Positions 4,493 to 52,752 of a stretch of DNA of 64,000 nucleotides are shown piece after piece. The number at the start of each line of letters is the position of its first letter. Position 1 is the stretch's first letter. The notes below the pieces were generated by a model. That model did no database searches. It was not told the origin of the DNA and saw only the letters and a list, made by a program, of their open reading frames with translations. The translations under genes and the position numbers were made by a program. Location: assembly GCA_035347995.1 (NCBI GenBank), contig DAOPQD010000001.1, positions 46,012-110,011 of the forward strand, given 5' to 3'. This DNA is from Anaerolineae bacterium. GTDB taxonomy: Bacteria; Chloroflexota; Anaerolineae; B4-G1; SLSP01.

Positions 4493-4493
4493 C

Positions 4494-5588: not shown

Positions 5589-5752
5589 GCCGTTGGCATT
5601 GTCGCGGGGAAGCTGCTGGCGGAGTTGGGTGAAGGGAAACAAGGGCGCAATAAAAGTTACCAGTGCGGAACCGGAGCGTTTCCAATTGGGAACCGCATCG
5701 TTTCCCACCTGGCAGAGAGTTTTACATGCCTGGTAAAGAATTTTGCAAGCAT

Positions 5753-5814
5753 GAGAACGTAGACGTGCGAACGTGCGAACGTAAGATCCGCTGACTTGCT
5801 GATTCGCTTATTTT
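5753..5814. repeat. Promoter-proximal 8-bp-period tandem repeats upstream of the HAMP-GAF sensor gene (GAACGTGC type followed by GATTCGCT type)
   Basis: gagaacgt|agacgtgc|gaacgtgc|gaacgtaa followed by ctgacttg|ctgattcg|cttatttt, ending 2 nt before the RBS GGGGAG. Confidence 0.65.
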
Positions 5815-5829
5815 CAGGGGAGATTGAGC

Positions 5830-10308: not shown

Positions 10309-10322
10309 GGAGACCTGAGAGT

Positions 10323-35535: not shown

Positions 35536-38390
35536 TGGGGCCTCACGGTGAGGGGAATCACGACGGCGTTCTGCGGCGGAACCGATGCGGCGCTGCTCAC
35601 GGCGAGCGGCCCCGCTTCATCATACAGGCCGACGCGCAGGTCGTAGCTTCCCGCCGGCAATCCTGCCAGGGGATGCTCATCGGCGACGATCTCGCCGGTC
35701 ACCCAGGTGGTGGTAGGTTTTCCTCCCAGCGCGGGCCAGCTGTCATGTTGCCCGAGGAGCGGGCTGATGGTGCCGGGGGCCGTGACGTGGACGAACACGT
35801 TGTAGGGCGAGTTGCCGGTCTCCTCAGCGCGCCAGTAAAGGGTGAGGGTGAAGGGTTGTCCGGCGCCAGGCTCCGGCTCCAGCCGATAGCCAAGCAGTGC
35901 GGCGACGCCTGGACCGAAGTCCCCCGTCGCGGGCAGCAGGCCGTCCGGCGGCTGGAATTCCCGCCCGGCCACGATAGAGATCTCTGGCCCGCGCCATCGG
36001 GCCAGCGGCGCGCCCGCGGCAGTGAGGAGCTCCGCGGTGAGGGGGGCCTCGGCATCCAGCGCGCGGCAGGAGATGGGCAGGCGGAACTGCGTGGCGAAGC
36101 GGGTCCCGGCGGGAAGGGGAGAGGTCACGTTGGCCGCCGTCAGGGGCAGCGTCACCGCGTGTTCGGCGAGAGATAGGCGCAGGACATCGCGCCTGTCGGC
36201 AACGGCATAGGGCGCTGGGACCGCCCAAAATGCCCGGCCCTCGAGCGGCTCGCAGGGCCGCATGGTTTCCCGGCTGAGCCAGAACCCCAGCAGCTCGAGC
36301 GGGGAAGCTCCGGCGGTCGCCGCGCCGGGCTCTACCGGGATGGCATTTTCGGGGAGCGGGGGCGGCGCGGTCGCCGGCAACAGTTCGACCGGCTGCAGGG
36401 TGACGCTCGCCGAGGCGGCTCCTGCCACGTAGACGGTGAGGGTGGGCGTGGTGCTGCCGGGAGGCGTCCAGGGGTCAGGCGTCAGCGGATAGCGACCCAG
36501 CACGGGCGTCCCCGCCTGCCAACGCGAGGGACGGTAATCGCCGCTCGCCGGGGTGCCGTTGAAGCGCGCCCACTCATCGCCGCGAGCGTCGAGCAGGCGC
36601 AGCGCTACCTGATAGAAGCGCTCGCCGTGCGCGGCAGGATCTTCGGTGACCCAAAAGGTCCACACATCCAGGGTGCTGTCAACGGGCTGCGGCGCTTGGG
36701 GAAGCCGATAGCCCCACAGCGTCAGGTGAGGCAAAGTGGGCGTCGCCAGGCGTTCGGTGAGGTCGGGCTCTGGCGGGAAGTCGGCGCGGCGCGCAAGTGC
36801 AAAACGGCGCAGGCCCAGCCCGTGGAATTCCGGCGTGGGCACTTCGGCGCCCAGCTCCCCCAGCAGCGCGGGGACGACGCCGGTGGGATCGGTGATGGTC
36901 TCGAGCCAGGTGACGAGCCAGACCTGGGACGTGTTCTGGAGCGCCGCGTTCAGAGCGGCGGCGCCATTCGCGTAGTCAAGAACGTGGGTCACGTCCAGCA
37001 GTTTGTCATCAGGGAGGGGCAGCAGCCCCTCGAAGCCGGCATAGTACGCCCATGCCGGGAAGACCGAGCCTGTCTCTACGATGATGACGTCGCCGGGCGC
37101 GCGATTTTCCATGACGTAGTGCGCAACGCTGCGCCAGTCCTCCGTGGCGTAGGTCGGATCGGTGAGGAGATTGGCGTCCGCCTGCGCCGAAAGCGCGACG
37201 ACGAGCACGCTACACACGCCCAGGCCCAGTCGGGCCAGCGTGCGTCGGCGTCGGCCATGAAGCTGCGCCGCCATCCCCCAGCCGATGGCCAGGGCCAGCA
37301 CGGGCAGTGGTGCAAAGCCTGAGGCATGGCGACTGCCCCATTTGGGCAGATTGCGGAAAACTACTGCCATGAGCCCCAGGGGCATCAGTTGCAGCAGGGG
37401 ATAGAGTCCCGCAAGGGGACGACGGCGCGTCAGGATCAAGGCCCCAAACGAGGCCACCAGTATCAGGCCTCCCGCCGCGACCTTCCAGGCTGAGGGTAGA
37501 AAGTCGAAGACCGTCATGCCGGCAATGGAAGTGCGCAAAAATTCGGCGATGGGCAAATATCCTTCCCAGTAGGTGGCGTTTTGTCCCAGGGAGGGGAGGG
37601 CCTCCAGGACCCAGGGCAGAAAGATCAGCCCGGCGAGGAGTGTAGGGGGGAACATCGCCTGAAGCCACGCGCGCACCTCTTGCCAGGGACGACGGATCAG
37701 CGCGAGGAGCGCGAAGAGCGCCTGCCCCACCAGCCAGAACGCCGACAGCGTTAATGAAGCCATGGCACCCAGGGCGGCGGCACCCCACAGCCAGGCCCAC
37801 CGTCGGCGGGGACGTGGTTCGAGGGCGAGGAGCGTCTCGACTAACGCCATCCCCGCCAGGAGTGACCAGGCGATGAACGCGCCGTACATTCGGGTCTCGC
37901 GCGAGGCCCAAATTAAGGTGGGGGCAAGCGCGCCCAAAAGCAAGGCCCAAGTGCCGGCTGAGCGTTTGCCGGACAGTCGGCGGGCCATGTGGGCCAGCGC
38001 CGCGAGCGCGAGCAGGCCGTAGAGGGCCGAGGGGAACCGCAGGGCGAATTCGCTGGCGCCGGCGAGCGGAATCCAGGCGCGGAGCAAGAAATAGTGGGCC
38101 GGCGGGACGAGTTCGCTCGCGCTGAGCGCCAGCATCTCGCGCACGCTTACCTGAGTGGTCGCCCACCACAGATAGGCCTCGTCATACCACAGGCTACGCG
38201 CGCCGAGGCCTCCAACGCGCAACGCGAACGCCATCCACGGGAGCAGTATCACCCCTGCGTGTCGCTCAAGCCATCGTTTCACGGGCAGCCCTTGACTGAG
38301 TTCATAGAAGAGCACTTTTCTAACCGCTGAGCGGACCAGAGACACAGAGGCAAAAGCCCCCTGGCAGACAAAACGGTGGCCAGAGAACAT
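35532..38390 (-). CDS. GT-C fold (PMT/ArnT-like) membrane glycosyltransferase, paralog 2 (952 aa), with long C-terminal periplasmic repeat region
   Basis: DE motif RSLWYDEAYLWW and a multi-TM core. The C-terminal ~450 aa contains the same repeated module (YQVALRLLDARGDEW...RWQAGTPV; YNVFVHVTAPGTISPLLGQHDSWP...WVTGEIV...GSYDLRVGLYDEAGPLAV). The exact start is uncertain (38390 or an internal Met). Confidence 0.65.
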   Translation of the reverse strand: MFSGHRFVCQGAFASVSLVRSAVRKVLFYELSQGLPVKRWLERHAGVILLPWMAFALRVGGLGARSLWYDEAYLWWATTQVSVREMLALSASELVPPAHYFLLRAWIPLAGASEFALRFPSALYGLLALAALAHMARRLSGKRSAGTWALLLGALAPTLIWASRETRMYGAFIAWSLLAGMALVETLLALEPRPRRRWAWLWGAAALGAMASLTLSAFWLVGQALFALLALIRRPWQEVRAWLQAMFPPTLLAGLIFLPWVLEALPSLGQNATYWEGYLPIAEFLRTSIAGMTVFDFLPSAWKVAAGGLILVASFGALILTRRRPLAGLYPLLQLMPLGLMAVVFRNLPKWGSRHASGFAPLPVLALAIGWGMAAQLHGRRRRTLARLGLGVCSVLVVALSAQADANLLTDPTYATEDWRSVAHYVMENRAPGDVIIVETGSVFPAWAYYAGFEGLLPLPDDKLLDVTHVLDYANGAAALNAALQNTSQVWLVTWLETITDPTGVVPALLGELGAEVPTPEFHGLGLRRFALARRADFPPEPDLTERLATPTLPHLTLWGYRLPQAPQPVDSTLDVWTFWVTEDPAAHGERFYQVALRLLDARGDEWARFNGTPASGDYRPSRWQAGTPVLGRYPLTPDPWTPPGSTTPTLTVYVAGAASASVTLQPVELLPATAPPPLPENAIPVEPGAATAGASPLELLGFWLSRETMRPCEPLEGRAFWAVPAPYAVADRRDVLRLSLAEHAVTLPLTAANVTSPLPAGTRFATQFRLPISCRALDAEAPLTAELLTAAGAPLARWRGPEISIVAGREFQPPDGLLPATGDFGPGVAALLGYRLEPEPGAGQPFTLTLYWRAEETGNSPYNVFVHVTAPGTISPLLGQHDSWPALGGKPTTTWVTGEIVADEHPLAGLPAGSYDLRVGLYDEAGPLAVSSAASVPPQNAVVIPLTVRPQ

Positions 38391-39649: not shown

Positions 39650-41845
39650 TCAGCGCGACCAGAGGACAAGGGCGTCGTTGGGCTGACGTTCGGCGCCGAC
39701 GAAAGCGGCCAGGCGCGCGCCGGTCTCCGGATGATAAAGCCCCACGGCGATGGTGACGGGGGCCTCTGCCGCGGTGAGCCGGTGACTATCCAGGACGCGG
39801 TCGCCGGGAAGCCAGAGGTGGGTGGGGAAGGCCTGTCCCATTGGTGGAGCGTCGCCTGTCGCCAGGAGCGCGCCATCGGCGGCGCAGGCATGGACGAAGA
39901 CGGTGTAGTCCGCATCCACCGGCGCGAGGCTCTCCCAACACAGGGTCACTTCCCACGCATCGTCCCGTTCCGTGAGGGCAGCGTGGGTGAGCGCGAGCGC
40001 CTCCCCAAAGCGGGCTGGCATTTCCAGCGGGGGGAGGGTGTCGCACGGCGGCTGACTTCCCTGGATTCGCAGGGTGTCCAGCCTTGCCGCATCGCCCGCG
40101 GGCTGTCCCGCGAGGGTGACGGGGAGCCGTGCCTTGGTCTCGCCATCGTAAAAGGCAAGGTGAAGCTCCCATGCCTGCGTGGGAAGGTCGCTTGCGGGCA
40201 GCGGTAACAGCAATTTCTCGCGGAGCAGGGCCCCGGCAGGCCAGGCAGAGGTCGGCAGATTGCCATGTCCAGGCCAGGCATCGTAGGTGAGGCGGAGGGT
40301 GTTGTCGCCAGACCGGGCGGAGACGAGTTGCACGGCGAGCGCCCACTCCTCATCGAGGGGACGCAACGCTTCCAGGTAGAGCTGCAGCTCCAGGGCGGGA
40401 CGACAGTAGCTGGATTGCACCAGCCAGCAGGCCAGGCGCGACTCCGTCAACCGCACCTCATAGCCGCGCAAAGCGATGGCTTCCGCGCCGAAGACGACGT
40501 CGGTGGTGTAGGGGAGGGGTGTTGAGTCTTCCAGACGGGCGGGAGGAGCGAAGAGCGGCGCTGCGCCGGCGAGGAGCGTGATCAGTGCGCCGAGCGGCAG
40601 CCAGATGGCCCAGGCGCGCGCCAGTCGCGGCTGAAGCTGCTGCCAGCCGACCGCGAGGAGCACCGCGAGGGCGGGGGCTGCGGGAAAGAGCAGCCGTCCT
40701 CCCGTCGCCGGGGTGAGGGCATTCCAGCGCACCCATGCGACCACGATGATGACGAACCAGCCGCCCAGGAGCGCCAGCTCCGTCCGCCGCGCAAGGGTGC
40801 GGAAGTGCGCCATGAGGCCCACGCAGCCGCCTCCGAGCAGCGCGAAAAAGGGCCAGTAGAGCGCCCGGGGATAGAAAGCGCACGGCAGCTGTCCCCAATA
40901 GGAGCGCAGCATCAGCTGGAACGTGCCCCAGAGATCCACGCGTACCGCCGTGCGCCCGACGACGTCCAGCATGGGGGCGAGGGCGGTCAGATCGCCGTAG
41001 AGCCGCCAGTTGCGTCCCAGCCACGGCGTGACGAGTGCCAGCGCCGGAACAACGAGCAGCACTCCCCAGCGCAGCAGCCGGGTCAGTGGGGCGCGTTGCC
41101 GCCAGGCGTAGGCCAGGAGGGTCAATCCGCCCAATCCGAGCAGTCCCAGTCCGCTGAGTTTGCTCAGCGCTGCCAGTCCCGTCAGGATGCCAAAGCCGAG
41201 GAGGCGCGTTGGCGTCGGACCACGCTGCCAGATGTCCACCAACAGCACCAGCGCCCAGGTGGCCAGCGGGATGACGAGGTTATCGTTGTTCACCCCGGCC
41301 GCGAGGAGCAGGAATTGCGGGTTGAAGGCGACGACGGCCGTCGCCAGCGGCGCGACGAATCCTCGGGGCGCCAGCCGTCGGGCAAGAGCCCACGTCCCTG
41401 CGACGGTGGCGCATTGTAGAAGGGTGGAAAGCAGCCGCAGCGCGTAGACCGTGCGGCGATGTCCTTCCGGAGGGAACCCGGTGTAGGGATCGCGGCTCCA
41501 GGTGACGCGATTGTAGAGCGTATCGCCAGAGCCACAGGCGACGAAGGTGGCGGGAATGGGCCGCACGTCCGGCGCTTCGCGGGGCAGACCCCACAGGCGC
41601 ACCCACGCCGCGCCAAGGAGATGGTACAGCGGCGGCTGCGAGGCTTCTTGCCGGACATGGAAGCCGGCCGCCTCGGCCTCGCCATGGACGGGCAGCCGGC
41701 CGGTCACGGCGATGTGGCGGATGACCTCCGCGTGTTCGATCTCGTCGAGGTTTTCGTAGGGTGGGATCGTTATGTTCCAGGCCAGCGCCAGGCTTACGAA
41801 GGTCACCAGAATCAGCCATAGGCCGGCGCGTGAGGAGTGCATCAT
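39650..41845 (-). CDS. GT-C fold (PMT/ArnT-like) membrane glycosyltransferase, paralog 3, with C-terminal tandem beta-domains
   Basis: The start is taken at MMHSS (41845), which overlaps the esterase stop as ATGA; the track start at 41875 is also possible. DE motif is YENLDEIEHAEV, followed by a multi-TM core. C-terminal repeats are WALAVQLVSARSGDN...SAWPAG.. and YTVFVHACAADGALLATGDAPPMGQAFPTHLWLPGDRV...GLYHPETGARLAA. Confidence 0.7.
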   Translation of the reverse strand: MMHSSRAGLWLILVTFVSLALAWNITIPPYENLDEIEHAEVIRHIAVTGRLPVHGEAEAAGFHVRQEASQPPLYHLLGAAWVRLWGLPREAPDVRPIPATFVACGSGDTLYNRVTWSRDPYTGFPPEGHRRTVYALRLLSTLLQCATVAGTWALARRLAPRGFVAPLATAVVAFNPQFLLLAAGVNNDNLVIPLATWALVLLVDIWQRGPTPTRLLGFGILTGLAALSKLSGLGLLGLGGLTLLAYAWRQRAPLTRLLRWGVLLVVPALALVTPWLGRNWRLYGDLTALAPMLDVVGRTAVRVDLWGTFQLMLRSYWGQLPCAFYPRALYWPFFALLGGGCVGLMAHFRTLARRTELALLGGWFVIIVVAWVRWNALTPATGGRLLFPAAPALAVLLAVGWQQLQPRLARAWAIWLPLGALITLLAGAAPLFAPPARLEDSTPLPYTTDVVFGAEAIALRGYEVRLTESRLACWLVQSSYCRPALELQLYLEALRPLDEEWALAVQLVSARSGDNTLRLTYDAWPGHGNLPTSAWPAGALLREKLLLPLPASDLPTQAWELHLAFYDGETKARLPVTLAGQPAGDAARLDTLRIQGSQPPCDTLPPLEMPARFGEALALTHAALTERDDAWEVTLCWESLAPVDADYTVFVHACAADGALLATGDAPPMGQAFPTHLWLPGDRVLDSHRLTAAEAPVTIAVGLYHPETGARLAAFVGAERQPNDALVLWSR

Positions 41846-42609
41846 TCCATTCCTTCGGGAGGCCTCTCGAACCATTCTCGCGCTGCCTGCCAGGCGCGTT
41901 CGCGGTCAAGATCGAGGACCACGGTGTGTCCGCCGCGTTCCAGCCAGAGCAGCTGCTGTGGTCCGCCGAGCCGCGCCGCGACTTGACGGACCACGCGCGG
42001 GGGAACGGCGTGATCATGGCGGGCGTGGACGAGCAGGGTGGGGACACGCACGTCGGGCAGGCGCGCGTCCATGGCGAGCAGAAAACTGCCCAGTTCTGCC
42101 ACGGCCCGTAAGGGAATGCGCCGGTAAATGAAGCGGGCGCGACGAGCGGCGGCGTCGTGCATGTCGGAGCCGATTTTGGGCAGATAGGGGATCACGCGGG
42201 CGAGATGAGAGAGCCAGCCAGGCGGTAAGCCGTGGAAGGCAAAGCCGCCGGGGGTAGCGAAGGCGACTACCCGCTCCACGGGGTCCTCGGCGGCGACGTA
42301 GAGCGCCAGCGCCGCGCCGAGCGAGACCCCGGCGATGCCCAGGTGCTGACGTTGGCGGCGCAGTTCGGCGAGGCCGGCGCGGACGTCCGCGACCCAATCC
42401 TGCCAGTGGACGGCGGCGAGATCTTCGGGAGTGGTGCCGTGGCCGCGCAGCCGGATGCCAGAGACGGTCATGCCGGCGCGCGCCAGCGCTTCGCCGAGGG
42501 GCCGGACTTCATCCGGTGCAGTGAGGAAACCGTGAATGAGCAGGATGCCCGGCTCTCCGCCGGGCAGAAAGAACGGCGTCGGTTCTGGTCGCGCGCGATC
42601 TTCTTTCAT
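41842..42609 (-). CDS. Alpha/beta-hydrolase fold esterase/lipase-like protein (first gene of the envelope operon)
   Basis: GILLIHGF (oxyanion region) and the nucleophile elbow GVSLGAALAL (GxSxG). The His/Asp region is VHARHDHAVP. 255 aa. Confidence 0.75.
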   Translation of the reverse strand: MKEDRARPEPTPFFLPGGEPGILLIHGFLTAPDEVRPLGEALARAGMTVSGIRLRGHGTTPEDLAAVHWQDWVADVRAGLAELRRQRQHLGIAGVSLGAALALYVAAEDPVERVVAFATPGGFAFHGLPPGWLSHLARVIPYLPKIGSDMHDAAARRARFIYRRIPLRAVAELGSFLLAMDARLPDVRVPTLLVHARHDHAVPPRVVRQVAARLGGPQQLLWLERGGHTVVLDLDRERAWQAAREWFERPPEGME

Positions 42610-42748: not shown

Positions 42749-44122
42749 ATGAATAGAAAGACGCTAACTTCCCTGGTGTTGATCTTGTTGTTGGCGGCCG
42801 TGGCGCTTTATCTGGTGGTGCCGTCGCAGCATCCTGAGTGGCTGAAGCGCCTGCTGCTGTGGCAACCGGAGACCGCGCGCTCCCTGGAATTCATGCAGGG
42901 GTTGGACCTGCAAGGTGGGCTGCAACTCTCGATGGTGGCCGACGTGCCTGCCGGACAGCAGCTCTCCGCCGAAACGATGCGTGCGGCGGCGCAGGTGGTC
43001 GAGGGCCGCGTCAACGCGCTGGGCTTGAGCGAGCCGGTGGTGCAGGTGCAGGGGACGCGGCGCATCATCGTCGAGCTGCCCGGCATCGCCGACCCGGAGC
43101 AGGCGATTGATACCATCCGCGATACGGCGCTGCTTGAATTCGCCGAACCGCCTGCCGGCGCCGGCGAGGCGGAACTGACGCCCGGACGGGTCGTCAGCAC
43201 CACCTACGGCATGGGCGAGGACGTCACGGCGCCGCCCGGCTACTACAAGACGATTCTCATCGGTGATGCGCTGGATTCGGCCTTCAACACGGTGGATGAG
43301 ACTACCGGGCAGCCCATGGTGATCGTGCGCTTCAAAGCGGCGGATACACAGCGTTTTTACGAGTACACGAGCAATAACATCGGGCGCCCTCTGTGCATGG
43401 TGCTCGACAAAACTATCCTCTCGTGCCCTACCATCCGTGATGCCATCCCTGATGGCGAGGCGCAGATTTCCGGCGGGTTCACGTCGGAGAGCGCGCAGCA
43501 GCTCGCGATTCAGTTGCGCTACGGCGCCCTGCCGGTGCCGCTGAAAATCGAAAGCTACCGGGCGATTGGCCCGTCGCTGGGTGCAATTTCAGTTGAGAAA
43601 AGCATCCGCGCCGGCGTGGTCGGTCTGCTGGTGGTGTTCCTGTTCATGTTGATTTACTATCGCCTCAATGGCCTGGCGGCGGATCTGGCGCTGGCGCTCT
43701 ACGTGTTGCTCAACCTGTTGCTCTACAAATTGTTGCCCGTTACGCTGACCCTGCCAGGGATCGCAGGCTTCTTGCTCTCGGCGGGCATGGCCGTGGATGC
43801 CAACATTTTGGTCTTCGAGCGCATGAAGGAGGAATTGCGCCATGGGCGCTCGTTGGAACGGGGCGCGGAGGCGGGATTCAGCCGCGCGTGGACCTCGGTG
43901 CGCGACTCCAATCTGGCAACGCTTTTGACGTGTGCCATTCTCTGGTTCTTTGGCAACGCTTTTGCCGCGAGCCTCGTCAAAGGCTTCGCGCTGACGCTGG
44001 CGCTCGGTACGCTGATCAACATGTTCACCGCGCTGATGGTGACCCGAACTTTCGTCCGTACGGCCCTGGGGGTGCTGGGCGAAGAACGGGTGCGGCGCCA
44101 TCCCTGGTTGCTGGGAATTTAG
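42749..44122 (+). CDS. secD: Protein translocase subunit SecD
   Basis: The N-terminal TM is followed by a large periplasmic domain, then six C-terminal TM helices with SecD motifs (LPGIAGFLLSAGMAVDANILVFERMKEE). It is followed 12 nt later by secF. Confidence 0.9.
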   Translation: MNRKTLTSLVLILLLAAVALYLVVPSQHPEWLKRLLLWQPETARSLEFMQGLDLQGGLQLSMVADVPAGQQLSAETMRAAAQVVEGRVNALGLSEPVVQVQGTRRIIVELPGIADPEQAIDTIRDTALLEFAEPPAGAGEAELTPGRVVSTTYGMGEDVTAPPGYYKTILIGDALDSAFNTVDETTGQPMVIVRFKAADTQRFYEYTSNNIGRPLCMVLDKTILSCPTIRDAIPDGEAQISGGFTSESAQQLAIQLRYGALPVPLKIESYRAIGPSLGAISVEKSIRAGVVGLLVVFLFMLIYYRLNGLAADLALALYVLLNLLLYKLLPVTLTLPGIAGFLLSAGMAVDANILVFERMKEELRHGRSLERGAEAGFSRAWTSVRDSNLATLLTCAILWFFGNAFAASLVKGFALTLALGTLINMFTALMVTRTFVRTALGVLGEERVRRHPWLLGI

Positions 44123-44134: not shown

Positions 44135-45061
44135 ATGATTGACTTTGTTCACAATCGCAGGACCTATTTCATCCTGGCCGGGGTGTTGGTGGCGCTGAGC
44201 GTGGCGGCGATGCTGGTGTCTTATGTCACCTATGGACAGCTGGTGCGCATTGGCATTGATTTCAAGGGTGGCAGTCTGTTCTCAGTGCACTTCACGGCTC
44301 CTGTCACCGAGGACGTGATCCGTGAGGCTTTTGCAGAGGAAGGCTATACCAGCACCATCGTGCAGCAGTTGGGCGACCCCGCCGACAATACCTGGCAGAT
44401 TCGGACCAGTTTTGCGACGACCGATCAGATCAACGCCGTGTTGGAGCGCCTCGAGGAAATCACCGGCGCGGTGGATCGCAGCAGCTCGGTGGTGGATACG
44501 GTGGAAGCCACGGTGGGGGCGGAAGTGGCGCGCAGCGCCGCGCAGGCAGCTGGCGTGGCGGCGCTCGTCGTGCTGACGTTTATCTGGTTCTCGTTCCGTA
44601 AGGTGCCCCATCCGCTGCACTATGGCGTCGCTTCGGTCGTGGCGATGCTGATCAACGTGATCGTGGCCATGGGCTTCTATGCGCTCATGGGCTTGCTACA
44701 GGGGTGGGAAGCCGATGCGCTGTTCCTCACGGCGATCCTCACGGTGATCGGGTTCTCGGTTCAGGACATCATCGTGGTGTTCGACCGCATCCGCGAAAAT
44801 ATCCCGCGTCATCGCGGCGAGCCTTTCTCGCTGATCGTGAACCGCAGCATCATGGAGACGCTGCACCGTTCACTGGCGACGCAGCTGAACGCGATGTTCG
44901 TGATGATTGCCATCTTGTTGTTCGGCGGTGCGACGCTCAAGCCCTTCATTGCCGTGATGCTGGTAGGAATGCTCAGCGAGACCTTCACTTCGATGTTTGT
45001 GGCGGTTCACATTGTCGGGTTGTGGGAGGAGCATCGGAAGTCGCGTCCTGCGCGGGCGTGA
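44135..45061 (+). CDS. secF: Protein translocase subunit SecF
   Basis: RBS AGGAGG. The signature IDFKGGSLFSVHF is present, with C-terminal TM helices carrying GFSVQDIIVVFDRIREN. Confidence 0.9.
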   Translation: MIDFVHNRRTYFILAGVLVALSVAAMLVSYVTYGQLVRIGIDFKGGSLFSVHFTAPVTEDVIREAFAEEGYTSTIVQQLGDPADNTWQIRTSFATTDQINAVLERLEEITGAVDRSSSVVDTVEATVGAEVARSAAQAAGVAALVVLTFIWFSFRKVPHPLHYGVASVVAMLINVIVAMGFYALMGLLQGWEADALFLTAILTVIGFSVQDIIVVFDRIRENIPRHRGEPFSLIVNRSIMETLHRSLATQLNAMFVMIAILLFGGATLKPFIAVMLVGMLSETFTSMFVAVHIVGLWEEHRKSRPARA

Positions 45062-45156
45062 TGCCGGGGATGAGTGAGCGGGCCACCGACATGTGGCCCG
45101 CTTGCAGTAACGGGCTCCCTCTCAAAAAAACAACGCGCTTCAGCGCCGTCGTCTGG

Positions 45157-45198
45157 GTCAGGCTGGAGATGGAATCCCCAGCCTGACTTTATTTTTGC
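45157..45198 (+). terminator. Rho-independent terminator of secF; the hairpin is a copy of the REP-like module X
   Basis: gtcaggctgg-agatggaatcc-ccagcctgac followed by TTTATTTTTG. The stem sequence GGCTGG(A/G)GAT...CCCAGCC recurs at ~49790 and ~63025. Confidence 0.7.
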
Positions 45199-45229
45199 GT
45201 GACCCCCATTCGGTGCTATAGTGCTGCGT

Positions 45230-48200
45230 ATGCGGTTTCTGACTCCAAACAGCTTGTGGCTTCTGGCCCTGGCGCTGCCCATCATTGCCCTCTATCTGCT
45301 GCGCCTGCACCGACGGGAGACCCCTGTCGCCAGCGTGTTGCTCTGGCAGGCGGCGGCCGTCGAGCGTCGCGCCAATCGCCCCTGGCAGAAATTACGCCGT
45401 CACTGGCTGTTGGCGCTGCAGCTGCTGATTCTGGCGACGCTGGTCGCGGCGGCCGCTCACCCTGCCGTTCCCGCGCCGTCAACGCCGCAGGGACGGCTGT
45501 TGATCCTGCTGGACGCTTCCGCGAGTATGCAGGCGCGCCGCGAGGACGGCAACACGCGCTTCGAGGCGGCGCTCGCGGAACTGCGGGCGCTCTCTGAGGC
45601 GCTGGATGCGCGCAGCCGGGTGACGCTCATCACCACGAGCGCGACACCGCAGGTGGTGTTGCGCGACGGGGATGCTGCGGCGTTGCGGCGGACGCTCCCC
45701 GCGCTGCAGCCGACCGATGGCGGCGCCGATTGGGACGCGGCGGCGAGTCTGGCGCTCGGCCTCGCGGCCGGGGAAGAGGTCACGACGCTGGTGTTCACCG
45801 ATGCGGCGCTGGCGGAGTCCCTGCCCCCTCTGCCGGGCCGGGCGCAGCTCTTTACCGTAGGGGAGGCCGCCCCCAACGTGGGACTGGTGGATTTTTCTCT
45901 CCGCCGCAGCGCCGAGACTTTCACCGCGTTTGTGCGTGTGCTGAACGCCGGCCCGGCGCGACAGGTCACATTGCTGTTGCTTGCCGGCAGTGAAGTCCTC
46001 GCCCGTCAGGCGCTGGAGCTGCCCGCTGCGGGCGAGGTGACGCTCTCTTTCCCGGATCTGCCCACCTGGGGGTGGTTCGAGGCGCGCCTTGAGGACGCCG
46101 ATGATCGTTTCCCTTTGGATGATCGCGCCTGGGTGACACCGCCGCTCTCTGGCAGCGGGCAGGTGCTGCTGGTGACGTCGGGCAACCGCTTCCTCGAACT
46201 GGCATTGCGCGCCCTGCCGGGGATCGCCGTGCAACAGGCGACGACGCTGCCCCAAGACACCGCCGAGATGAGCGCCGCGGTGTTGGACGGCGCAGGCAGC
46301 GGGGGGACGTTCAGCGGCCCGGCGTGGTTGATTGCCCCCGGCGCGGGGACGCCCTGCGGCGAGCCGACAGGTGTTTTCACGCCGACAACGCCCCTGCGCA
46401 CCGGGTCCCATCCGCTGCTGGAATATGTCACCTGGGATGACGTGCACATTGCCCGCGCCACACGCTATGCCGCGCCCGCCGACGCCGTGACCTTGCTGGA
46501 AACGGCGGAAGGCCCCTTGCTCTGGGTGCTGAACCGGCCAGGGCAGCGGCTTATCTGCCAGGCGTTTGCCCTGCAGGACTCCGATCTGCCGCTGCGGGTG
46601 GCTTTCCCCATCCTCACCAACAATCTGATGGGCTGGCTGCTGCCGCAGACGTCACAGGCGCCGATTACCCCCCTGCCGGCAGGACAGCCCTGGACGCCAG
46701 CGCTCCCTCTCGCGGCGACGGCGGCTGTGTTGGTCACACCCACGGGGGAGCGCGTGGACTTGCTGGACGTGACAGCGTCCCTTCCGCAGCGCGCGGGGCT
46801 GTACCGCCTGGAATTGGAGACGGCGGGCGGGCCGGCAACGCACTATGTGGCGCTGTCGTTGCTCGATGCGGCGGAAAGCGATCTGCACCCCCATCCGCTG
46901 ATGATCGAGGGGCAGGCGCCTTTGAGCGCTGCCCCCGGCGCGACCGGTTGGCGCGACTTCAGCCGCTGGGTCGCTGCGGCGGCCCTCGCGTTGTTGCTCC
47001 TCGAAGGGGCGCTCTGGTGGGGGCGCGCGGCTGCCTGGCATGGGGTGCGCGCGGCCCTCTCCGCGTTGCGCTATGACTGGCGCCCTGTGGCGTTGCGGCT
47101 GATCCTGGTAGGGGCATTGATCCTGGCCCTCGCGGACGTGCGCCTGCCCCAGGCGACGCGCAATCTGGCGACGGTGTTCGTCGTGGATCGGTCTGCGAGC
47201 GTCGCGGCGGAGGAGGGGGAGATTGAGGCGCTATTGACCGCTGCCTGGGAGGCCAAAGGCGCGCAGGACCGCGCCGCGGTGGTCGTTTTTGGCGGGGAAG
47301 CGCGGGTCGCACAGCCGTTGTCTGAGGGGTCTTTCGCGGCTGATCTGCGCCTGGCGCCCCAACCGGATGCCACCGACATTGCCGCTGCCGTGCGGTTGGG
47401 GGCGAGCCTCGTCCCTGAGGGAGCGCCGGGGCGGCTGGTACTCATCACCGATGGGCTGGAGACGCGCGACGATGGGGCGACTGCCCTGCTTCAGGCACGT
47501 GCGCGGGGCCTGGAGACGCTGGTGGCCGCCGTGACGCCGGCGGCGTCGGCGGAAGTGTGGATCGAGGCGACGCGCCTGCCCGCGCGGGCCTATCCGGGGG
47601 ACACAGTGGCGGTTGCTGTGACGCTGGGGGCGACGGCTGCTCAGCCCGTCCGCCTCACCTGGGCGGCAGGTTCGCAAGAAGGGGATGTTGTGTGGGAGGT
47701 CTCCCGTGGGCAGGGCAGGTATTTGTTCACCTTCAGTGCGCCAGAAAGGGGATGGGTGCCCGTGCGTTTTTGCGTGGCGGCGGAGGCGGATTTTTTCGTG
47801 GAAAACAACTGTGGCGGCGGTTGGCTGCGCGTGGAAGGGGTGCCTCGCGTGCTCATTGTGGGGGCGGTGGAGGAACGGCAGGCTTTGGCGGCGGCGTTGC
47901 GCGCCACCGGCCTGGAAGTGGTGGAACTGCAGCCGGAGGCGCTGCCGTTCACTGCTCCGGCCTTGGGCGACTATGCTGCGGTGATCCTGGTCAACACGCC
48001 CGCCCGCGCTTTGCCGTTGCAGGCCGGCTCAGCGCTGCAAGCTTATGTCCGCGATCTGGGCGGGGGCCTGGTGACGCTCGGCGGACCGGAAAGCTACGGG
48101 GTGGGTGGATGGTCTGCCACCGCTCTGGAGGCGGCGTTGCCCGTCTCCACGCAGGTGCAGGATCCACGCCGGTTTCCTCCGCTGGCGATGGTCATCGTGA

Positions 48201-49705
48201 TTGACAAATCGGGCAGCATGGCAGAGTCGGACGCGGAAGGGGGGACTCCAAAAATCCGGCTTGCGGCGGAAGCGGCCGCGCGTGTGGCGGAGGCATTGAA
48301 CGACAACGACGCGCTCGCGGTGGTGGCCTACGACGATCGGCCGGCGGACACTCTGGGTCCGGTGTCGGGGAGCGAGCGGCAGCTGTTGCTCGGACGTTTG
48401 TCGCAGTTGCAGGCGGGCGGCGGCGGCATCTACGTGCGCGACGGCCTGGCCTATGCCCGGCAGCTGCTCGCGGAGAGCTTCGAGCCGCTGTCGGAGCAAC
48501 AGCGGCATGTGCTGTTGGTGGCGGATGGCAGCGACGCGGAACAACAGGCGGGCGCGCTGGCGCAGGTGGCCGCTTTGCGCGCTCAGGGGGCGACGGTGAG
48601 CGTGATCGCGATCGGCGCTGGCGGTGATGTCCCCTTTCTGCAGGAGGTGGCGCGTCAGGGCGAGGGGCGCTTCTATCTCACGGAGCGTGCTGCGGACCTG
48701 CCGGTGATTTTCACGGAGGAACTGGCTCACACGCGACGCTCCTACATCGTCGAGCAGAGCTTCTCTCCTATCGCCGGAATGGCCTGGGAGCCGCTGGAGA
48801 GCTTCACGGCGCTGCCAGCTCTGGCGGGATATGTGGCGACGACTCCCAAACCCGGCGCGGATGTGCCGTTGTGGGGCGCCGTGACCGGGGATCCACTGCT
48901 GGCAGCGTGGTCCTATGGCTTGGGGCGCGCTGTGGCCTGGACCTCTGATGCGACAGGTCGCTGGGCCGTGGAGTGGCTGGGCTGGGAGGACTTCGCGCGC
49001 TTCTGGGGTGATGTGGTGCGGTGGGTGTTGCCCGCACCCGCGGAGGAGGGGGTGACGCTGAACGTCGCCGCGGAGGATAGACAGGCGCGCGTCACCCTCG
49101 ATGTGCTGGATCCGACGACGGGCCGCTATGTGGATGGCCTGGATCTCGTGCTGCAGGCGTCGCAGCTGGAAGCCAGGGTGTCTGTCCCGCCGACGGCATT
49201 GCGCCAGACGGCGCCGGGCCGTTATGAGACCACCCTGCCCCTGGGGGATGACACTGCCCCGTGGCTTTTCCATGTCACTGGCGCATTGCAGGCTACCGCG
49301 GGATGGATGCCGCCCTACGCGGCCGAATTCGTGCCGGGCGATGCCGCCGCCGCGACCGCGCGCTTGATCGCCCGGGGACAGGCGCAGCCTCTCACGGCGC
49401 CGGAACAGGCGTTTGCGCCGACCCTGCGCGGACGTCAGGCAGGAGCGCCGCTGGCTCCCTGGTTGGTCACCATCGTGGCGTGGCTCTGGCCCCTCGATAT
49501 TGCCGCGCGGCGCCTGGGGATTTCATGGGACGAGGTGCGGCGGTGGGGAAGGCGTTGGCGCAAGAGTGGTCGGAGGGAATCGCGTTCTGCATCGCGGAGC
49601 GTCGCGTCCCTGCCGGTGGAAAGCCCGCCTCCGGCGCCGCCGCCATCTCAGGAAGAAGCGCTGGCGGCGCGGCTGAAGGAGCGCTTACGCGGGTCCCGGC
49701 GCTGA
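45230..49705 (+). CDS. BatA-like multi-VWA fusion protein (N-terminal double-TM BatA domain, three vWFA domains, GATase1-like/DUF1355-like domain, C-terminal TM and Arg/Ser-rich tail)
   Basis: The start is taken at ATG 45230 (the track's GTG is at 45221). The N-terminus MRFLTPNSLWLLALALPIIALYLLRLHRR is the BatA/TIGR02226-type pattern. VWA MIDAS motifs are LLILLDASASM, VFVVDRSASV and MVIVIDKSGSMAESD...AYDDRP..QAGGGGIYVRDGLAYA. The GATase1-like segment is RVLIVGAV...VILVNTPARALP...GGGLVTLGG. A TM helix (WLVTIVAWLWPL) is followed by the tail RRWGRRWRKSGRRESRSASRS..PPPAPPPSQEE. No MoxR ATPase gene is adjacent. Confidence 0.75.
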   Translation: MRFLTPNSLWLLALALPIIALYLLRLHRRETPVASVLLWQAAAVERRANRPWQKLRRHWLLALQLLILATLVAAAAHPAVPAPSTPQGRLLILLDASASMQARREDGNTRFEAALAELRALSEALDARSRVTLITTSATPQVVLRDGDAAALRRTLPALQPTDGGADWDAAASLALGLAAGEEVTTLVFTDAALAESLPPLPGRAQLFTVGEAAPNVGLVDFSLRRSAETFTAFVRVLNAGPARQVTLLLLAGSEVLARQALELPAAGEVTLSFPDLPTWGWFEARLEDADDRFPLDDRAWVTPPLSGSGQVLLVTSGNRFLELALRALPGIAVQQATTLPQDTAEMSAAVLDGAGSGGTFSGPAWLIAPGAGTPCGEPTGVFTPTTPLRTGSHPLLEYVTWDDVHIARATRYAAPADAVTLLETAEGPLLWVLNRPGQRLICQAFALQDSDLPLRVAFPILTNNLMGWLLPQTSQAPITPLPAGQPWTPALPLAATAAVLVTPTGERVDLLDVTASLPQRAGLYRLELETAGGPATHYVALSLLDAAESDLHPHPLMIEGQAPLSAAPGATGWRDFSRWVAAAALALLLLEGALWWGRAAAWHGVRAALSALRYDWRPVALRLILVGALILALADVRLPQATRNLATVFVVDRSASVAAEEGEIEALLTAAWEAKGAQDRAAVVVFGGEARVAQPLSEGSFAADLRLAPQPDATDIAAAVRLGASLVPEGAPGRLVLITDGLETRDDGATALLQARARGLETLVAAVTPAASAEVWIEATRLPARAYPGDTVAVAVTLGATAAQPVRLTWAAGSQEGDVVWEVSRGQGRYLFTFSAPERGWVPVRFCVAAEADFFVENNCGGGWLRVEGVPRVLIVGAVEERQALAAALRATGLEVVELQPEALPFTAPALGDYAAVILVNTPARALPLQAGSALQAYVRDLGGGLVTLGGPESYGVGGWSATALEAALPVSTQVQDPRRFPPLAMVIVIDKSGSMAESDAEGGTPKIRLAAEAAARVAEALNDNDALAVVAYDDRPADTLGPVSGSERQLLLGRLSQLQAGGGGIYVRDGLAYARQLLAESFEPLSEQQRHVLLVADGSDAEQQAGALAQVAALRAQGATVSVIAIGAGGDVPFLQEVARQGEGRFYLTERAADLPVIFTEELAHTRRSYIVEQSFSPIAGMAWEPLESFTALPALAGYVATTPKPGADVPLWGAVTGDPLLAAWSYGLGRAVAWTSDATGRWAVEWLGWEDFARFWGDVVRWVLPAPAEEGVTLNVAAEDRQARVTLDVLDPTTGRYVDGLDLVLQASQLEARVSVPPTALRQTAPGRYETTLPLGDDTAPWLFHVTGALQATAGWMPPYAAEFVPGDAAAATARLIARGQAQPLTAPEQAFAPTLRGRQAGAPLAPWLVTIVAWLWPLDIAARRLGISWDEVRRWGRRWRKSGRRESRSASRSVASLPVESPPPAPPPSQEEALAARLKERLRGSRR

Positions 49706-49784
49706 GGCAGCGCGTCAAGCTCAGAAAGATGCCATGTGCTGGCGCACCTCATCCAGGCATGAAAATGTAAGTCGTGAGGCGTGA

Positions 49785-49849
49785 GTTCGGCTGGGGATTC
49801 CATCCCCAGCCTGACAGGAGCCAACCGCGCTGAAGCGCGGTGTTGGAGG
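49785..49849. repeat. REP-like mosaic palindromic element (modules X and Y) downstream of the VWA gene
   Basis: gttcggctggggattccatccccagcctgacaggagccaaccgcgctgaagcgcggtgttgg. Hairpin 1 is ggctgggga/tccccagcc and hairpin 2 is caaccgcgc-tgaa-gcgcggtg. It is related to the copies at ~45160, ~63021 and ~63241. Confidence 0.7.
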
Positions 49850-49993: not shown

Positions 49994-50833
49994 TTAGTTG
50001 CCGGGGGCTTCTTGCCTGGCAGCCTCGATGCCGCTCTGAACCTCGGCCGCATGGGCCAGAGTGGCTTCCTTTTTGCTGCTTAGCAGGGCGTCCTTGAGCG
50101 TGGCGATAATCAGCAGCGAGATGGCGAAGCTGCCGATATCGAGCGGGCTTTGGCCGGGGGTGGTGATGGCCATCTCGGCCTCGCGCGCGGCCAGGGTCGT
50201 CCCGCTGTCGGCAATGCAGACGGTAGGGATGCCTTTGGCGTTCGCCAGTTTAACCGCGTGACCGGTGTCCACGCCGGGGGTGCCAAAGACCAGCGCCAGC
50301 AGCACATCCCCAGCCTGCATGTCGTTAGTGGCCTTGGCGACTTCCACCATACTGGGGGCGAAGTGGAAGACGGGAATCCCCAAGGGGACGAGGCTTTCCG
50401 CCAGATACCGGGCAATGTCGTAGCTGGGGAATTCCCCGACGATCCAGATGCGTTCTGCATTCTGGAGCATCTTCAACGCCTGGGCCAGGTGAGGGGCCTC
50501 GGTGGTTGCAAACTGCTCCAGGTCCTGGGCCTTACTGGCAAAGAGCGCCTGCACGAGATCCTCTTCGTTGCCTGCCTCGACGGCCTTGTGATAGGTCTGC
50601 GCGATCTCCCCGCGCACGTAGGCCTTGATTTCCCTGGAGAGCTCCCGGAACCCGCTATAGCCGATTTCCTGTGAGAAACGCACGACGGTCGCCGGATCAA
50701 TCCCAACGCGCCGGGACAGTTCTGTCGCTGTCAGGAAGGCAACGTCAAGGGTTTGATTGAGGATGAAATCTGCCAGGCGGCGAAATCCAGGGGTCAAATT
50801 AGCATAATGCTCTTCAATCCGTTCTCGAAACAT
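49994..50833 (-). CDS. RpiR/MurR-family transcriptional regulator (HTH_6 + SIS domain), paralog 1
   Basis: The N-terminal HTH is LTPGFRRLADFILNQTLDVAFLTATELSRRVGIDPATVVRFSQEIGYSGFRELS. The C-terminal SIS domain is RIWIVGEFPSYDIARYLAE...GDVLLALVFGTPGVDT. Confidence 0.8.
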   Translation of the reverse strand: MFRERIEEHYANLTPGFRRLADFILNQTLDVAFLTATELSRRVGIDPATVVRFSQEIGYSGFRELSREIKAYVRGEIAQTYHKAVEAGNEEDLVQALFASKAQDLEQFATTEAPHLAQALKMLQNAERIWIVGEFPSYDIARYLAESLVPLGIPVFHFAPSMVEVAKATNDMQAGDVLLALVFGTPGVDTGHAVKLANAKGIPTVCIADSGTTLAAREAEMAITTPGQSPLDIGSFAISLLIIATLKDALLSSKKEATLAHAAEVQSGIEAARQEAPGN

Positions 50834-50888
50834 GGTAGTCTCCTTTCCTTATACTGAATGCGTTGATGCTGCAAGGCCGAATCAGCTG

Positions 50889-51764
50889 TCAATCTTTCGT
50901 CTGAGGGAGGATTGCCTCGTAAGCGGCAGTGTGGGTGCGCAGCTCCAGGATTTCGCTGAGATACTCGTTGTAGGCGGCGAAGGACTCTGCCGTCTTGGCC
51001 GCCGTGGTGCCCGCCAGCGCTTCCCAGATCAGCGCGATGATCGCGAGCGCGGCGCCGGTGTTCGGGATGCCGGTCTCGCCGGCGGTGGGAACAAGGACGA
51101 CCAGTTCGGCTTCGTGGGCCGGCGCGCCGAGGGTGTTGTCGGCGATCGTGATCGTGTGCACGCCTTTCTCTCGCGCCATCCGCACCAGATACCCGGAATC
51201 AATGTCCGGCACGCTGATGGCCAGCACCAAGAGTGCGTCTCCCGGCTCCATCTTGCTGAGGGCAGCGGCGACGTTGAGCATATCCGGCGCAAACGCCCTG
51301 GCCTGGATGTCGGCGACTTGCAACATCCGTGCCAGGAACTGCGCGATGGCTTGCTGGGGGCCTTCCCCTGTGATCCAGACGCGCGGCGCCTGTTTGAGGA
51401 TCCGGAGCGCTTCACCGAGTTTGGCCGTCTCGGTCATGGAAAAATCTGCGAGGTTTTGGCGTGTGCTGTCCAGAAGCTGGTGCACCAGCGCCTCTTCACT
51501 TTCGGCCTCGACGCTTTTGCGGTAGGTAGTCGTCACCTGATCGCGCACGTAATGTTTGATCTCGTGTGAGAGCTCGCGATACCCGCTATAGCCGATCTCC
51601 TGCGCAAAGCGGACGACGGTGGCCGGATCCACTCCTACACGGCGGGAGATTTCGGTGACGGTGAGGAAGGCCGCGTCGAGTGTGTGGTCCATGATGAAAT
51701 CGGCCAATTTGCGAAAACCCGGCGTCAAACTATCGTAATACTGTCGAATTTGCTCTTGAAACAT
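50889..51764 (-). CDS. RpiR/MurR-family transcriptional regulator, paralog 2
   Basis: The start is taken at MFQEQIRQYYDSL (51764) with RBS AAGGAGA 8 nt upstream; the track ORF extends to 51803 without an RBS. The HTH is LTPGFRKLADFIMDHTLDAAFLTVTEISRRVGVDPATVVRFAQEIGYSGYRELS, and a SIS domain follows. Confidence 0.8.
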   Translation of the reverse strand: MFQEQIRQYYDSLTPGFRKLADFIMDHTLDAAFLTVTEISRRVGVDPATVVRFAQEIGYSGYRELSHEIKHYVRDQVTTTYRKSVEAESEEALVHQLLDSTRQNLADFSMTETAKLGEALRILKQAPRVWITGEGPQQAIAQFLARMLQVADIQARAFAPDMLNVAAALSKMEPGDALLVLAISVPDIDSGYLVRMAREKGVHTITIADNTLGAPAHEAELVVLVPTAGETGIPNTGAALAIIALIWEALAGTTAAKTAESFAAYNEYLSEILELRTHTAAYEAILPQTKD

Positions 51765-51825
51765 GGTTGAAATCTCCTTACTTTGATTTGCTGATGGTGA
51801 CAATGCTGGAACGATATCCTTACGG

Positions 51826-52752
51826 TCACAAAATAGGAGGACGATTTGCCTGGCTCAGTATCTTAGACCAAATGGCAAGGGCCAGGCCCGGGTCAGCGTG
51901 TCCCTGCTGACGCAACTCTACCAGCTGTTGGAGATACTTTTGCCGTAATTCTTCCTGCTGTTGAAGGCTTTCCTTTCGCTGTTGGCTGATCATGTTGGCA
52001 ATGGCTGCCAGCACTGCAGCGATGAGCGCCAGACCTGACATGGCGGAGGGCGTGCCGAGAGAAAAAGCGAGGGTCAATTGCGCCTCTCTGGCCGCAGCCT
52101 GCATCCCATTGCTGCTGATGCAGAGGGTGCGCCCGCCTTTTGCCTGCCCCAGACGCAGAACGTAGCTTAGATTGAGTTGCGGGCCTTCATGGCCTAAGGC
52201 CAACAGCGCATCTCCCGCCTGGACCTGATCCAGGTACATCGCCGTGCTCAACAGGTTGGATTCAAACGCTTCCGCCGCCAATCCGAGATTTTGCAGTTCT
52301 TGCGCGAACGCCTGTCCCAAATGTATCGCCGAGCCTTCTGCGGTGATCCAGATAGCGGGAACTGCGTTGAGCGTCGCGCCGATTTCTTCCAGCAGCCGCA
52401 AGTCTGCAGGGGAGAGGTATTGGAGCGGTTGGTAGATCTTTTGGAGCTGGGCTGCCAGACGCTGTTCTTCCGTTGCCTCTGATGCCTTTGAGTCCATGTC
52501 CGACAGCTGGCGCGGCGCGGTGATGTGTTCGTGAATGTACTGTTTGATCTCCTGGGAAAGTTCGCGATAGCCCGTATAGCCCAGTTCTTGCGCAAACCGC
52601 ACGACGGTCGCCGGATCAACTTCCAACCGCTGCGCGAGCTCGGTCGCCGTGAGGAGCGCCGCCTCGAGAGTGTGGTTCAGGATGAAATCGGCCAGCCGGC
52701 GGAATCCCGGGGAGAACTGCGCGTAGCCGTTTCTGATGCGGTCTTTAAACAT
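51826..52752 (-). CDS. RpiR/MurR-family transcriptional regulator, paralog 3
   Basis: The HTH is FSPGFRRLADFILNHTLEAALLTATELAQRLEVDPATVVRFAQELGYTGYRELS. A SIS domain follows, and the C-terminal tail is longer. The gap to paralog 2 is only 22 nt. Confidence 0.8.
   Translation of the reverse strand: MFKDRIRNGYAQFSPGFRRLADFILNHTLEAALLTATELAQRLEVDPATVVRFAQELGYTGYRELSQEIKQYIHEHITAPRQLSDMDSKASEATEEQRLAAQLQKIYQPLQYLSPADLRLLEEIGATLNAVPAIWITAEGSAIHLGQAFAQELQNLGLAAEAFESNLLSTAMYLDQVQAGDALLALGHEGPQLNLSYVLRLGQAKGGRTLCISSNGMQAAAREAQLTLAFSLGTPSAMSGLALIAAVLAAIANMISQQRKESLQQQEELRQKYLQQLVELRQQGHADPGLALAIWSKILSQANRPPIL

Follow-up and report, generated by a model that had tools for sequence, protein, structure and literature searches.

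What does a giant BatA-type protein do when its gene stands apart from any gene for a MoxR ATPase? The question is raised by a single gene (45230-49705, + strand) in a 64-kb stretch of Anaerolineae DNA (contig DAOPQD010000001.1; the whole stretch is called the window below), whose product of 1491 amino acids combines an N-terminus of the BatA type with three VWA domains and with GATase1-like domains. Operons that combine moxR, DUF58 and BatA-type genes are, to our knowledge, among the most widespread bacterial gene clusters without a known mechanism. We find that the protein is a real, conserved variant of a known, poorly understood cell-envelope system and no new kind of system. On homology, it is best described as a natural head-to-tail fusion of operon genes three and four, which encode a BatA-like and a VWA/GATase1-like membrane protein, respectively.

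Gene fusion in a moxR operon family

The gene is an uninterrupted open reading frame (ORF) that ends with the stop at 49705. We take the ATG at 45230 as the start because the homologs all begin with M-x-F-L-x-P at this position and the Pfam BatA profile aligns from residue 1. From this ATG the protein has 1491 residues; the length of 1494 given in the first-pass annotation is reached only by counting from a GTG at 45221, which falls within the putative -10 element. An ORF of this size could be an artefact, that is, a mis-joined assembly or a frameshift that merges two genes, and the more distant relatives do have two separate genes. Yet the identical 1491-residue protein occurs on 13 independent contigs (in assemblies from JGI, NCBI, ENA and Logan that differ in sample and assembler), the longest of which spans 278 kb; its NCBI entries, HOC19930.1 and HQM12850.1, are annotated as 'VWA domain-containing protein'. 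Our searches returned 90 full-length homologs, of which about 50, with 47-95% identity, belong to Anaerolineae, and more than 50 Anaerolineae ortholog clusters have equal length and align colinearly. The first-pass annotation had allowed for orthologs that are always split, or for a frameshift here; the orthologs are instead fused at 40% to 95% identity. Moreover, one transmembrane (TM) helix is absent at the junction of the two halves, which a simple frameshift would not delete. An artefact, to which we would give practically no weight, is thus already refuted by the contigs, the ortholog clusters and the alignment, and the gene encodes a single genuine polypeptide. Nor is that polypeptide the oddity it had seemed: it belongs to a family with more than 90 clusters of full-length proteins and at least 593 loci in genomes.

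These related loci, at least 593 in number, come from a scan of GTDB species genomes. For the best 80 we took in up to 10 kb of flanking DNA and compared the ORFs of each locus with MoxR, DUF58, SecD/F and both halves of the protein. In the split and linked arrangement, moxR and DUF58 precede adjacent ORFs for an N-half (~640 amino acids) and a C-half (~950 amino acids). Thirty loci with moxR and/or DUF58 directly upstream are of this type, and they come from many Anaerolineae, Armatimonadota, Firmicutes (including the cultured Lihuaxuella, Aneurinibacillus and Paenactinomyces), Planctomycetota and Kuenenia. In the fused and linked arrangement (22 loci with moxR and/or DUF58 ahead of the fused gene), a membrane protein may be encoded between moxR and DUF58, the fused gene comes after DUF58, and in Methylomirabilota a TPR gene is next; the arrangement is found in Methylomirabilota/Rokuibacteriota, Binatia, Deltaproteobacteria, one Lachnospiraceae and Solirubrobacterales, and the megaplasmid of Deinococcus aetherius holds an annotated example. 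The window's clade has the fused gene alone: orthologs down to 40% identity, in three neighborhoods, are without moxR or DUF58 within 10 kb. The C-half, too, can stand alone, mainly in Promineifilaceae/Ardenticatenaceae (15 loci with adequate flanks). Fifty-six other loci have an N-half together with either 5 kb or more of sequence upstream or a visible partner; in 52 of them it lies directly behind moxR and/or DUF58. These 52 loci contain homologs of both halves, so that the window protein is homologous to the membrane proteins whose genes follow moxR and DUF58. The word 'stand-alone', used of this gene before, therefore holds for gene order in one Anaerolineae clade; it does not show independence from MoxR.

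The fused forms sit in at least five separate branches of a neighbor-joining tree of the C-half, which indicates that fusion happened repeatedly. Split N-half proteins end in a TM helix with a conserved Glu, and split C-half proteins begin with their own M-x-F-x-x-P double-TM hairpin. In the two fused forms whose junction we examined, the window protein and the Methylomirabilota type, TM3 (with the invariant E592) is followed by TM4, and the first TM helix of the C-half is absent. TM3 corresponds to the C-terminal helix of the split N-half proteins and TM4 to the second helix of the split C-half proteins. In the window protein, this ancestral gene junction, comprising TM3 (residues 579-597), a short cytoplasmic loop and TM4 (619-637), lies at 46964-47140. 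The loss of exactly one helix keeps both ectodomains outside and provides independent support for the topology predicted below. By Rosetta-stone logic, recurrent fusion argues that the two halves act as one complex; a fusion that is repeated and each time preserves topology is strong genomic evidence for one outward-facing complex of both membrane proteins.

The fused homologs in moxR operons (Methylomirabilota/Rokuibacteriota, Binatia, Deltaproteobacteria, Solirubrobacterales and Deinococcus) share the architecture of the window protein from end to end, including the invariant residues of its metal ion-dependent adhesion sites (MIDAS), at 27-31% identity over 80-97% of the length. They differ in being still placed behind moxR and DUF58, in their short tails and in the TPR gene that follows in Methylomirabilota. 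Their VWA3 also keeps the MIDAS Thr (GGGTD), whereas the window's subfamily reads GGGGIY.

Some of these operons hold further membrane proteins. A conserved protein of ~480 amino acids that belongs to no Pfam family (7647-9107 in locus L008, with homologs in L026-L058) is placed between moxR and DUF58 in the Methylomirabilota operons, where the TPR protein is added behind the fused gene. In Solirubrobacterales, a weakly similar membrane protein of 476 amino acids (8574-10004 in L009) is encoded directly upstream of the giant gene. The loci with a C-half alone (L016, L019-L024, L028, L031-L034, L036, L044, L048, L060 and L087) contain no N-half, moxR or DUF58 within 10 kb.

Domains and topology of the protein

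Pfam matches place BatA at residues 1-78, VWA_2 in three stretches and GATase1_like at 1192-1266. The BatA match (PF07584) reaches 48.5 bits (cut-off 25.9; E 1.2e-12) and covers profile positions 1-77 of 77; TIGR02226, at 18.2 bits, stays under its cut-off of 23.05. The protein thus has the ~77-residue N-terminal domain of the BatA family, with its M-x-F-x-x-P start, two TM helices and basic loop. We modeled the protein with AlphaFold2 (AF2) in two overlapping parts, residues 1-640 (predicted local distance difference test, pLDDT, 87) and 600-1491 (pLDDT 88). The BatA domain (45230-45463) consists of TM1 (8-25), a conserved Arg-rich loop (26-57, with W39 and RPWQ) and TM2 (58-77). It is followed by VWA1 (~88-200; 45491-45829), which carries the motif DASAS, by an all-beta domain modeled as a beta-sandwich with pLDDT >90 (~204-290; 45839-46099), by a first alpha/beta domain of the GATase1-like/ThuA-like type (~299-470; 46124-46639), which has no conserved Cys and is therefore non-catalytic, and by another beta-sandwich in the model of residues 1-640 (~498-576; 46721-46957).

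Beyond the junction, the C-half begins with VWA2 (~638-770; 47141-47539) and a beta-sandwich seen in the AF2 model (~776-870; 47555-47839). Next comes the N-terminal part of a second GATase1-like domain (~873-970; 47846-48139), assigned from a weak ThuA match and from profile matches to 2gk3 and 3rht. VWA3 (~985-1168; 48182-48733) separates it from the C-terminal part (1192-1266; 48803-49027), which matches positions 169-245 of 247 in PF07090 and also 3soz. A filamin/Ig-like beta-sandwich (~1275-1360; 49052-49309) is seen in the AF2 model, and the C-half protein of locus L015 has a Filamin match at the equivalent place. TM5 (~1408-1428; 49451-49513) is an AF2 helix, and the tail behind it (49514-49702) comprises a membrane-proximal basic helix, a variable, disordered linker rich in Arg/Ser and Pro, and a conserved terminal helix. 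All these features are encoded on the + strand.

The matches at the level of fold or profile are BatB 3ibs and Bacteroides fragilis 4jdu for the VWA domains, and the GATase1-like proteins 3rht, 2gk3 and 3soz; a PDB Foldseek search with the C-half returned essentially VWA-domain matches only. When the family profile was compared with PDB sequences, residues 37-156 of 2gk3/3rht aligned to profile positions 884-982 and residues 165-244 of 3soz to positions 1178-1257. Because these chain segments align on either side of VWA3, we place VWA3 as an insertion within the second GATase1-like domain. Both halves thereby follow a common plan of membrane anchor, VWA domain, beta-sandwich, non-catalytic GATase1-like domain, beta-sandwich and second membrane anchor. 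This likeness is one of architecture alone, as BLASTP of the N-half against the C-half found no significant relatedness (best E 0.16).

The first-pass annotation had named the BatA-type N-terminus, three VWA domains with DxSxS motifs, a GATase1-like domain, a C-terminal TM helix, an Arg-rich stretch and a poly-Pro (PPPAPPP) segment, and all of these are present. It had overlooked the helices at ~579-597 and ~619-637, the GATase1-like domain at ~299-470, the four beta-sandwich domains and the nesting of VWA3.

In an alignment of 17 homologs that range from 66% to 27% identity, the DxSxS motifs of all three VWA domains are invariant: DASAS (D95/S97), DRSAS (D653/S655/S657) and DKSGS (D992/S994/S996). 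VWA2 contains the complete MIDAS, with the downstream T715 and D741 in addition to D653, S655 and S657. VWA1 and VWA3 have the DxSxS motif and the Asp (D1099 in VWA3) and deviate at the Thr, which is not conserved in VWA1 and is replaced in VWA3, where GGGGIY stands in its place. The loss of this Thr does not track the loss of linkage to moxR, as GGGGIY is also found in split, moxR-linked loci, for example L012, L018 and L039. VWA3 of the Chloroflexia-type C-half proteins in L064, L081, L085, L086 and L088 has a Cys/His-rich insertion, for example GRCHCDNPNAKPGEY, right behind DxSGSM, which may be an extra metal site.

A hydropathy scan and the AF2 models agree on five TM helices (8-25, 58-77, 579-597, 619-637 and ~1408-1428), as against the three recognized at first. 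Positive charges are unevenly distributed around them. The TM1-TM2 loop has eight K/R (against two D/E), the TM3-TM4 loop four and the tail 16 in 60 residues, whereas the flanks on the ectodomain side have one or two. By the positive-inside rule, the blocks ~78-578 and ~638-1407 (~500 and ~770, together ~1270 residues) are predicted to lie outside the cytoplasm. This placement agrees with the BatA-type protein BB0173, an inner-membrane protein whose VWA domain was located in the periplasm by experiment (PMC5700661). On the cytoplasmic side, the prediction leaves only the tail, the short loop between TM3 and TM4 and the conserved loop of the BatA domain.

Two of these cytoplasmic elements are strongly conserved. 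The BatA loop (W39, RPWQ and Q64) is the best-conserved part of the N-terminus in the 17 homologs. In the tail, conservation is confined to the terminal helix EEALAARLKERLR (residues 1475-1487; 49652-49690), for which typical relatives read ETLAARLKRRxRE. The motif occurs in 50 of 52 full-length homologs from Chloroflexota, and related forms (xLAxRLLxKKR, SRLLAAKRKR) end split moxR-linked and C-half-only proteins of several phyla; it is thus common to the stand-alone and the moxR-linked forms. By contrast, the Arg/Ser-rich stretch, which had been singled out as the notable feature of the tail, is not conserved: together with the Pro-rich segment it forms a variable disordered linker (pLDDT <50 at residues 847-866 of the second model), and what the family keeps is the terminal LAxRLKxR helix.

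Proposed function and its coupling to MoxR

We propose that the window protein is a five-pass membrane protein whose two large ectodomains (~500 and ~770 residues) would project from the outer face of the cytoplasmic membrane, where they would form a scaffold that binds components of the cell envelope in dependence on divalent cations (MIDAS). The earlier suggestion of a membrane-associated scaffold is a fair description. A cytoplasmic MoxR ATPase and the soluble VWA-like adaptor DUF58 would assemble or remodel this scaffold, and the whole may contribute to envelope integrity or stress tolerance, as for related operons. In the window's clade, where the fused gene has parted from moxR and DUF58, both would act in trans. 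We regard the identity of the protein and this general mode of action, taken jointly, as somewhat probable, and its details as much less so.

As a general principle, MoxR ATPases normally need a cytoplasmic VWA-like partner (PMC3893208). The first-pass annotation had VWA proteins of Bat/MoxR systems work with an adjacent MoxR; the VWA domains here, predicted to be extracytoplasmic, cannot be its direct partner. Domains that face outward cannot reach a cytoplasmic ATPase, and MoxR and DUF58 would rather act through the BatA loop, the TM3-TM4 loop or the tail with its tethered basic helix. The DUF58 proteins of the operons fit the role of partner, as they have no TM helix, carry a DxSxS motif and show weak similarity to VWA domains. 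Because DUF58 is the sole cytoplasmic VWA-like component, it is the likely MoxR adaptor. The BatA loop and the LAxRLKxR helix on its disordered tether are then obvious candidates for contact with the ATPase. Both are kept in the stand-alone clade, and mainly for this reason we favor a moxR and a DUF58 that lie elsewhere in the genome and would act in trans over the loss of these genes.

Functional evidence comes directly from distant relatives only. The MoxR operon RL3499 of R. leguminosarum is important for membrane integrity and cell morphology (as cited in PMC3893208), transposon insertions in RL3499-3501 impair growth on complex medium (PMC5118466, PMC4255674), and Riemerella batA and moxR mutants show stress phenotypes (PMC11834572).

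Several points weigh against the proposal. A Leptospira strain with all bat genes deleted has no phenotype (PMC3557215). The topology is a prediction, and VWA1 and VWA3 have an incomplete MIDAS. The action of moxR and DUF58 in trans, which we consider most likely, is an assumption. As the first-pass annotation had stated, no moxR lies nearby: the long ORFs and called genes of the window contain no AAA_3 or DUF58 domain, and its sole AAA+ gene is clpB (30269-32845). With ~10 kb added beyond each end of the window, neither gene was found from about -55 kb to +24 kb of the giant gene, so that this genome shows no adjacent moxR-DUF58 pair over that range; the orthologs down to 40% identity likewise have neither within 10 kb. 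Accessions from the window's MAGs (the HOC and HQM blocks) were absent from the 10 multi-member MoxR clusters that we screened with the MoxR of the nearest split relative as query, in a search that was saturated (more than 8000 hits at E <= 1e-40 to this one query, and a top 120 that are all at least 79% identical). The likeness to the RL3499-RL3502 operon is drawn from gene arrangement. Finally, we know of no ligand for any family member.

In a rival reading, fusion has produced a scaffold or adhesin at the cell surface that is independent of MoxR, so that the clade, once the genes were fused, needs neither ATPase nor DUF58 and the protein works alone, for instance in a filament, a sheath or cell-cell adhesion via its MIDAS sites. 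The gene has its own promoter with a terminator upstream, its solitary arrangement has been kept from 95% down to 40% identity in three neighborhoods, and the sister Promineifilaceae/Ardenticatenaceae have a C-half alone, without moxR within 10 kb, at 15 loci. Yet an adhesin that is wholly external would have no evident use for the BatA loop and the terminal helix, which are nonetheless as conserved here as in the moxR-linked relatives; gene order, moreover, is silent on a moxR elsewhere in the genome, and MoxR genes are very common in Anaerolineae. We regard such independence as the main rival to our proposal, and as less likely. In its more specific form, the clade's protein would work without any MoxR or DUF58 as a self-contained membrane-spanning scaffold whose terminal helix and BatA loop engage another cytoplasmic partner. 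We think this unlikely; if true, the clade would be a natural experiment that parts the function of a BatA-type envelope protein from its AAA+ chaperone.

Two further readings have much less in their favor. The giant gene could be carried by a mobile unit, or it could belong to a conflict or defense system of the MoxR-vWA kind, as such modules do occur in conflict systems (PMC7159879; bioRxiv 10.64898/2026.09.08.750141). What invites this idea is a ~60-bp double-hairpin element resembling repetitive extragenic palindromic (REP) sequences, of which the only two copies in 64 kb lie on either side of the gene, inverted relative to each other. The upstream copy (45129-45188, + strand), behind which there is a T-run, shows the hairpin GGCTGGAGATGGAATCCCCAGCC followed by TTTATTTTT, and the downstream copy (49784-49844, - strand) is the REP-like element noticed in the first-pass annotation. 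The element is absent from the orthologous loci of other species, which have the same secDF - giant gene - rpiR synteny. Since the synteny is kept where the repeat is missing, the repeats are younger than the gene's location, recent and species-specific, and hold no trace of its arrival. There is no transposase nearby, no PADLOC match and no adjoining effector, kinase or FHA gene; the neighbors are secDF, RpiR-type regulators and glycosyltransferases. This reading is very unlikely. Very unlikely, too, is an enzymatic function or one as a subunit of a chelatase, such as that of a glutamine amidotransferase or a ChlD-like component of a metal chelatase, as the Pfam GATase1_like match and some JGI names of homologs ('Mg-chelatase subunit ChlD', 'Ca-activated chloride channel homolog') might suggest. 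Class I glutamine amidotransferases have a Cys-His-Glu triad and a nucleophile elbow; here no Cys is invariant anywhere in the 17 homologs, so that the GATase1-like domains are not amidotransferases. The would-be elbow reads LGGPES, and the sole invariant His, H1093, lies in VWA3 rather than in a GATase1-like domain. In addition, the protein lacks an AAA+ module, and its domains are predicted outside the membrane. The GATase1-like fold matches non-enzymatic GATase1-like and ThuA-like proteins, and the nearest solved relatives (3rht, 2gk3 and 3soz) are entered in the PDB under the label '(GATase1)-like protein' or as putative proteins of the cytoplasm, and none has an enzyme name.

Among known systems, the closest in gene order to the MoxR-linked scaffold that we propose is that of R. 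leguminosarum. Vanderlinde et al. 2011 reportedly described RL3499-RL3502 as an operon with two transmembrane proteins. It is the studied example of four-gene MRP-type operons, and the homologs found here are arranged in this way: behind moxR come genes for a soluble DUF58 protein, for a membrane protein that begins with a BatA domain and for a VWA/GATase1-like membrane protein. In the window, the two membrane proteins are one polypeptide, one TM helix has been removed and the gene is unlinked from moxR and DUF58. The role in membrane integrity and cell morphology noted above (as cited in PMC3893208) fits an outward-facing scaffold. The Bat (aerotolerance) proteins BatA and BatB of Bacteroides and spirochaetes, including BB0173 of Borrelia, share the BatA double-TM domain (PF07584), and the VWA fold of the window protein is closest to theirs (BatB 3ibs and B. 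fragilis 4jdu); bat genes, too, lie behind moxR and DUF58. They differ in size and content, with ~330 amino acids, one VWA domain and neither GATase1-like nor beta-sandwich domains, as compared with 1491 amino acids, three VWA and two GATase1-like domains in the window protein, and Bat operons also hold the TPR proteins BatC and BatE and, in addition, BatD. Integrin-type MIDAS receptors offer an analogy only. Both are membrane-anchored, with extracellular VWA/I-domains that contain a MIDAS and with short cytoplasmic tails, and inside-out signaling to the ectodomains could operate here in an integrin-like manner; homology, however, stops at the VWA fold.

Public databases already contain the family, the operon and the fused proteins, all with generic names, and the literature that we searched contained no experimental study of the fused or GATase1-like-containing members found here. 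New are the recognition that this protein joins the products of two operon genes in a way that preserves topology, and the finding of a clade with the gene alone, of a VWA domain nested in another domain and of a conserved helix at the C-terminus. Current views are thereby refined and none is overturned. With the stand-alone fused form, expression, topology mapping and ligand fishing can be approached through one gene.

Promoter and neighborhood of the gene

Upstream of the giant gene lie secD (42749-44122) and secF (44135-45061), as the first-pass annotation had described. Behind secF lie a hairpin and a T-run (45157-45197); the hairpin belongs to the upstream REP-like element, which probably terminates secF transcription. 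The -10 sequence TATAGT noted before is present at 45217-45222, 7 nt ahead of the ATG, as part of an extended -10 element, TGcTATAGT (45214-45222, + strand). Orthologs have the same extended -10 element at this distance, in L005 (TGCTATAGT; 66% protein identity) and in L091 (TGTTACAAT; 47%), which makes the suggested leaderless start plausible. Because a Shine-Dalgarno sequence does not fit into the 7-nt gap, a leaderless mRNA is probable, and the giant gene is probably a transcription unit of its own. A scan for the sigma-70 consensus, which needs a -35 element, found nothing upstream of the gene. The adjacency to secDF is not conserved in L091 or L090 and is probably incidental.

Directly downstream and convergent lie three tandem paralogous RpiR/SIS regulators (49994-52752, - strand), a trio that is kept in L005 and L091. 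The region upstream of secDF looks like an envelope-biogenesis neighborhood: it contains large PMT_2/ArnT-like glycosyltransferase membrane proteins and a 741-residue protein without a Pfam match (33268-38390, - strand; 23906-25399, + strand; 39650-41875, - strand), and it is partly syntenic in L005, L006 and L091.

The beginning of the window (9-16817, + strand) is occupied by an unbroken run of at least eight multi-GAF proteins, an unusually dense sensory array that continues for at least 10 kb upstream in L092. The run includes a hybrid kinase of 2164 amino acids (10323-16817) with seven GAF domains followed by PAS, HisKA, HATPase and two REC domains, and a HAMP protein with five GAF domains (5824-10308), which also happens to be 1494 amino acids long and is unrelated to the giant protein. 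Between 55147 and 59591, the long + strand ORFs (511 and 910 amino acids, without Pfam matches) are spurious and stem from high G+C; the genes called there are on the - strand and encode ACPS, two M16 peptidases and UDP-glucose dehydrogenase.

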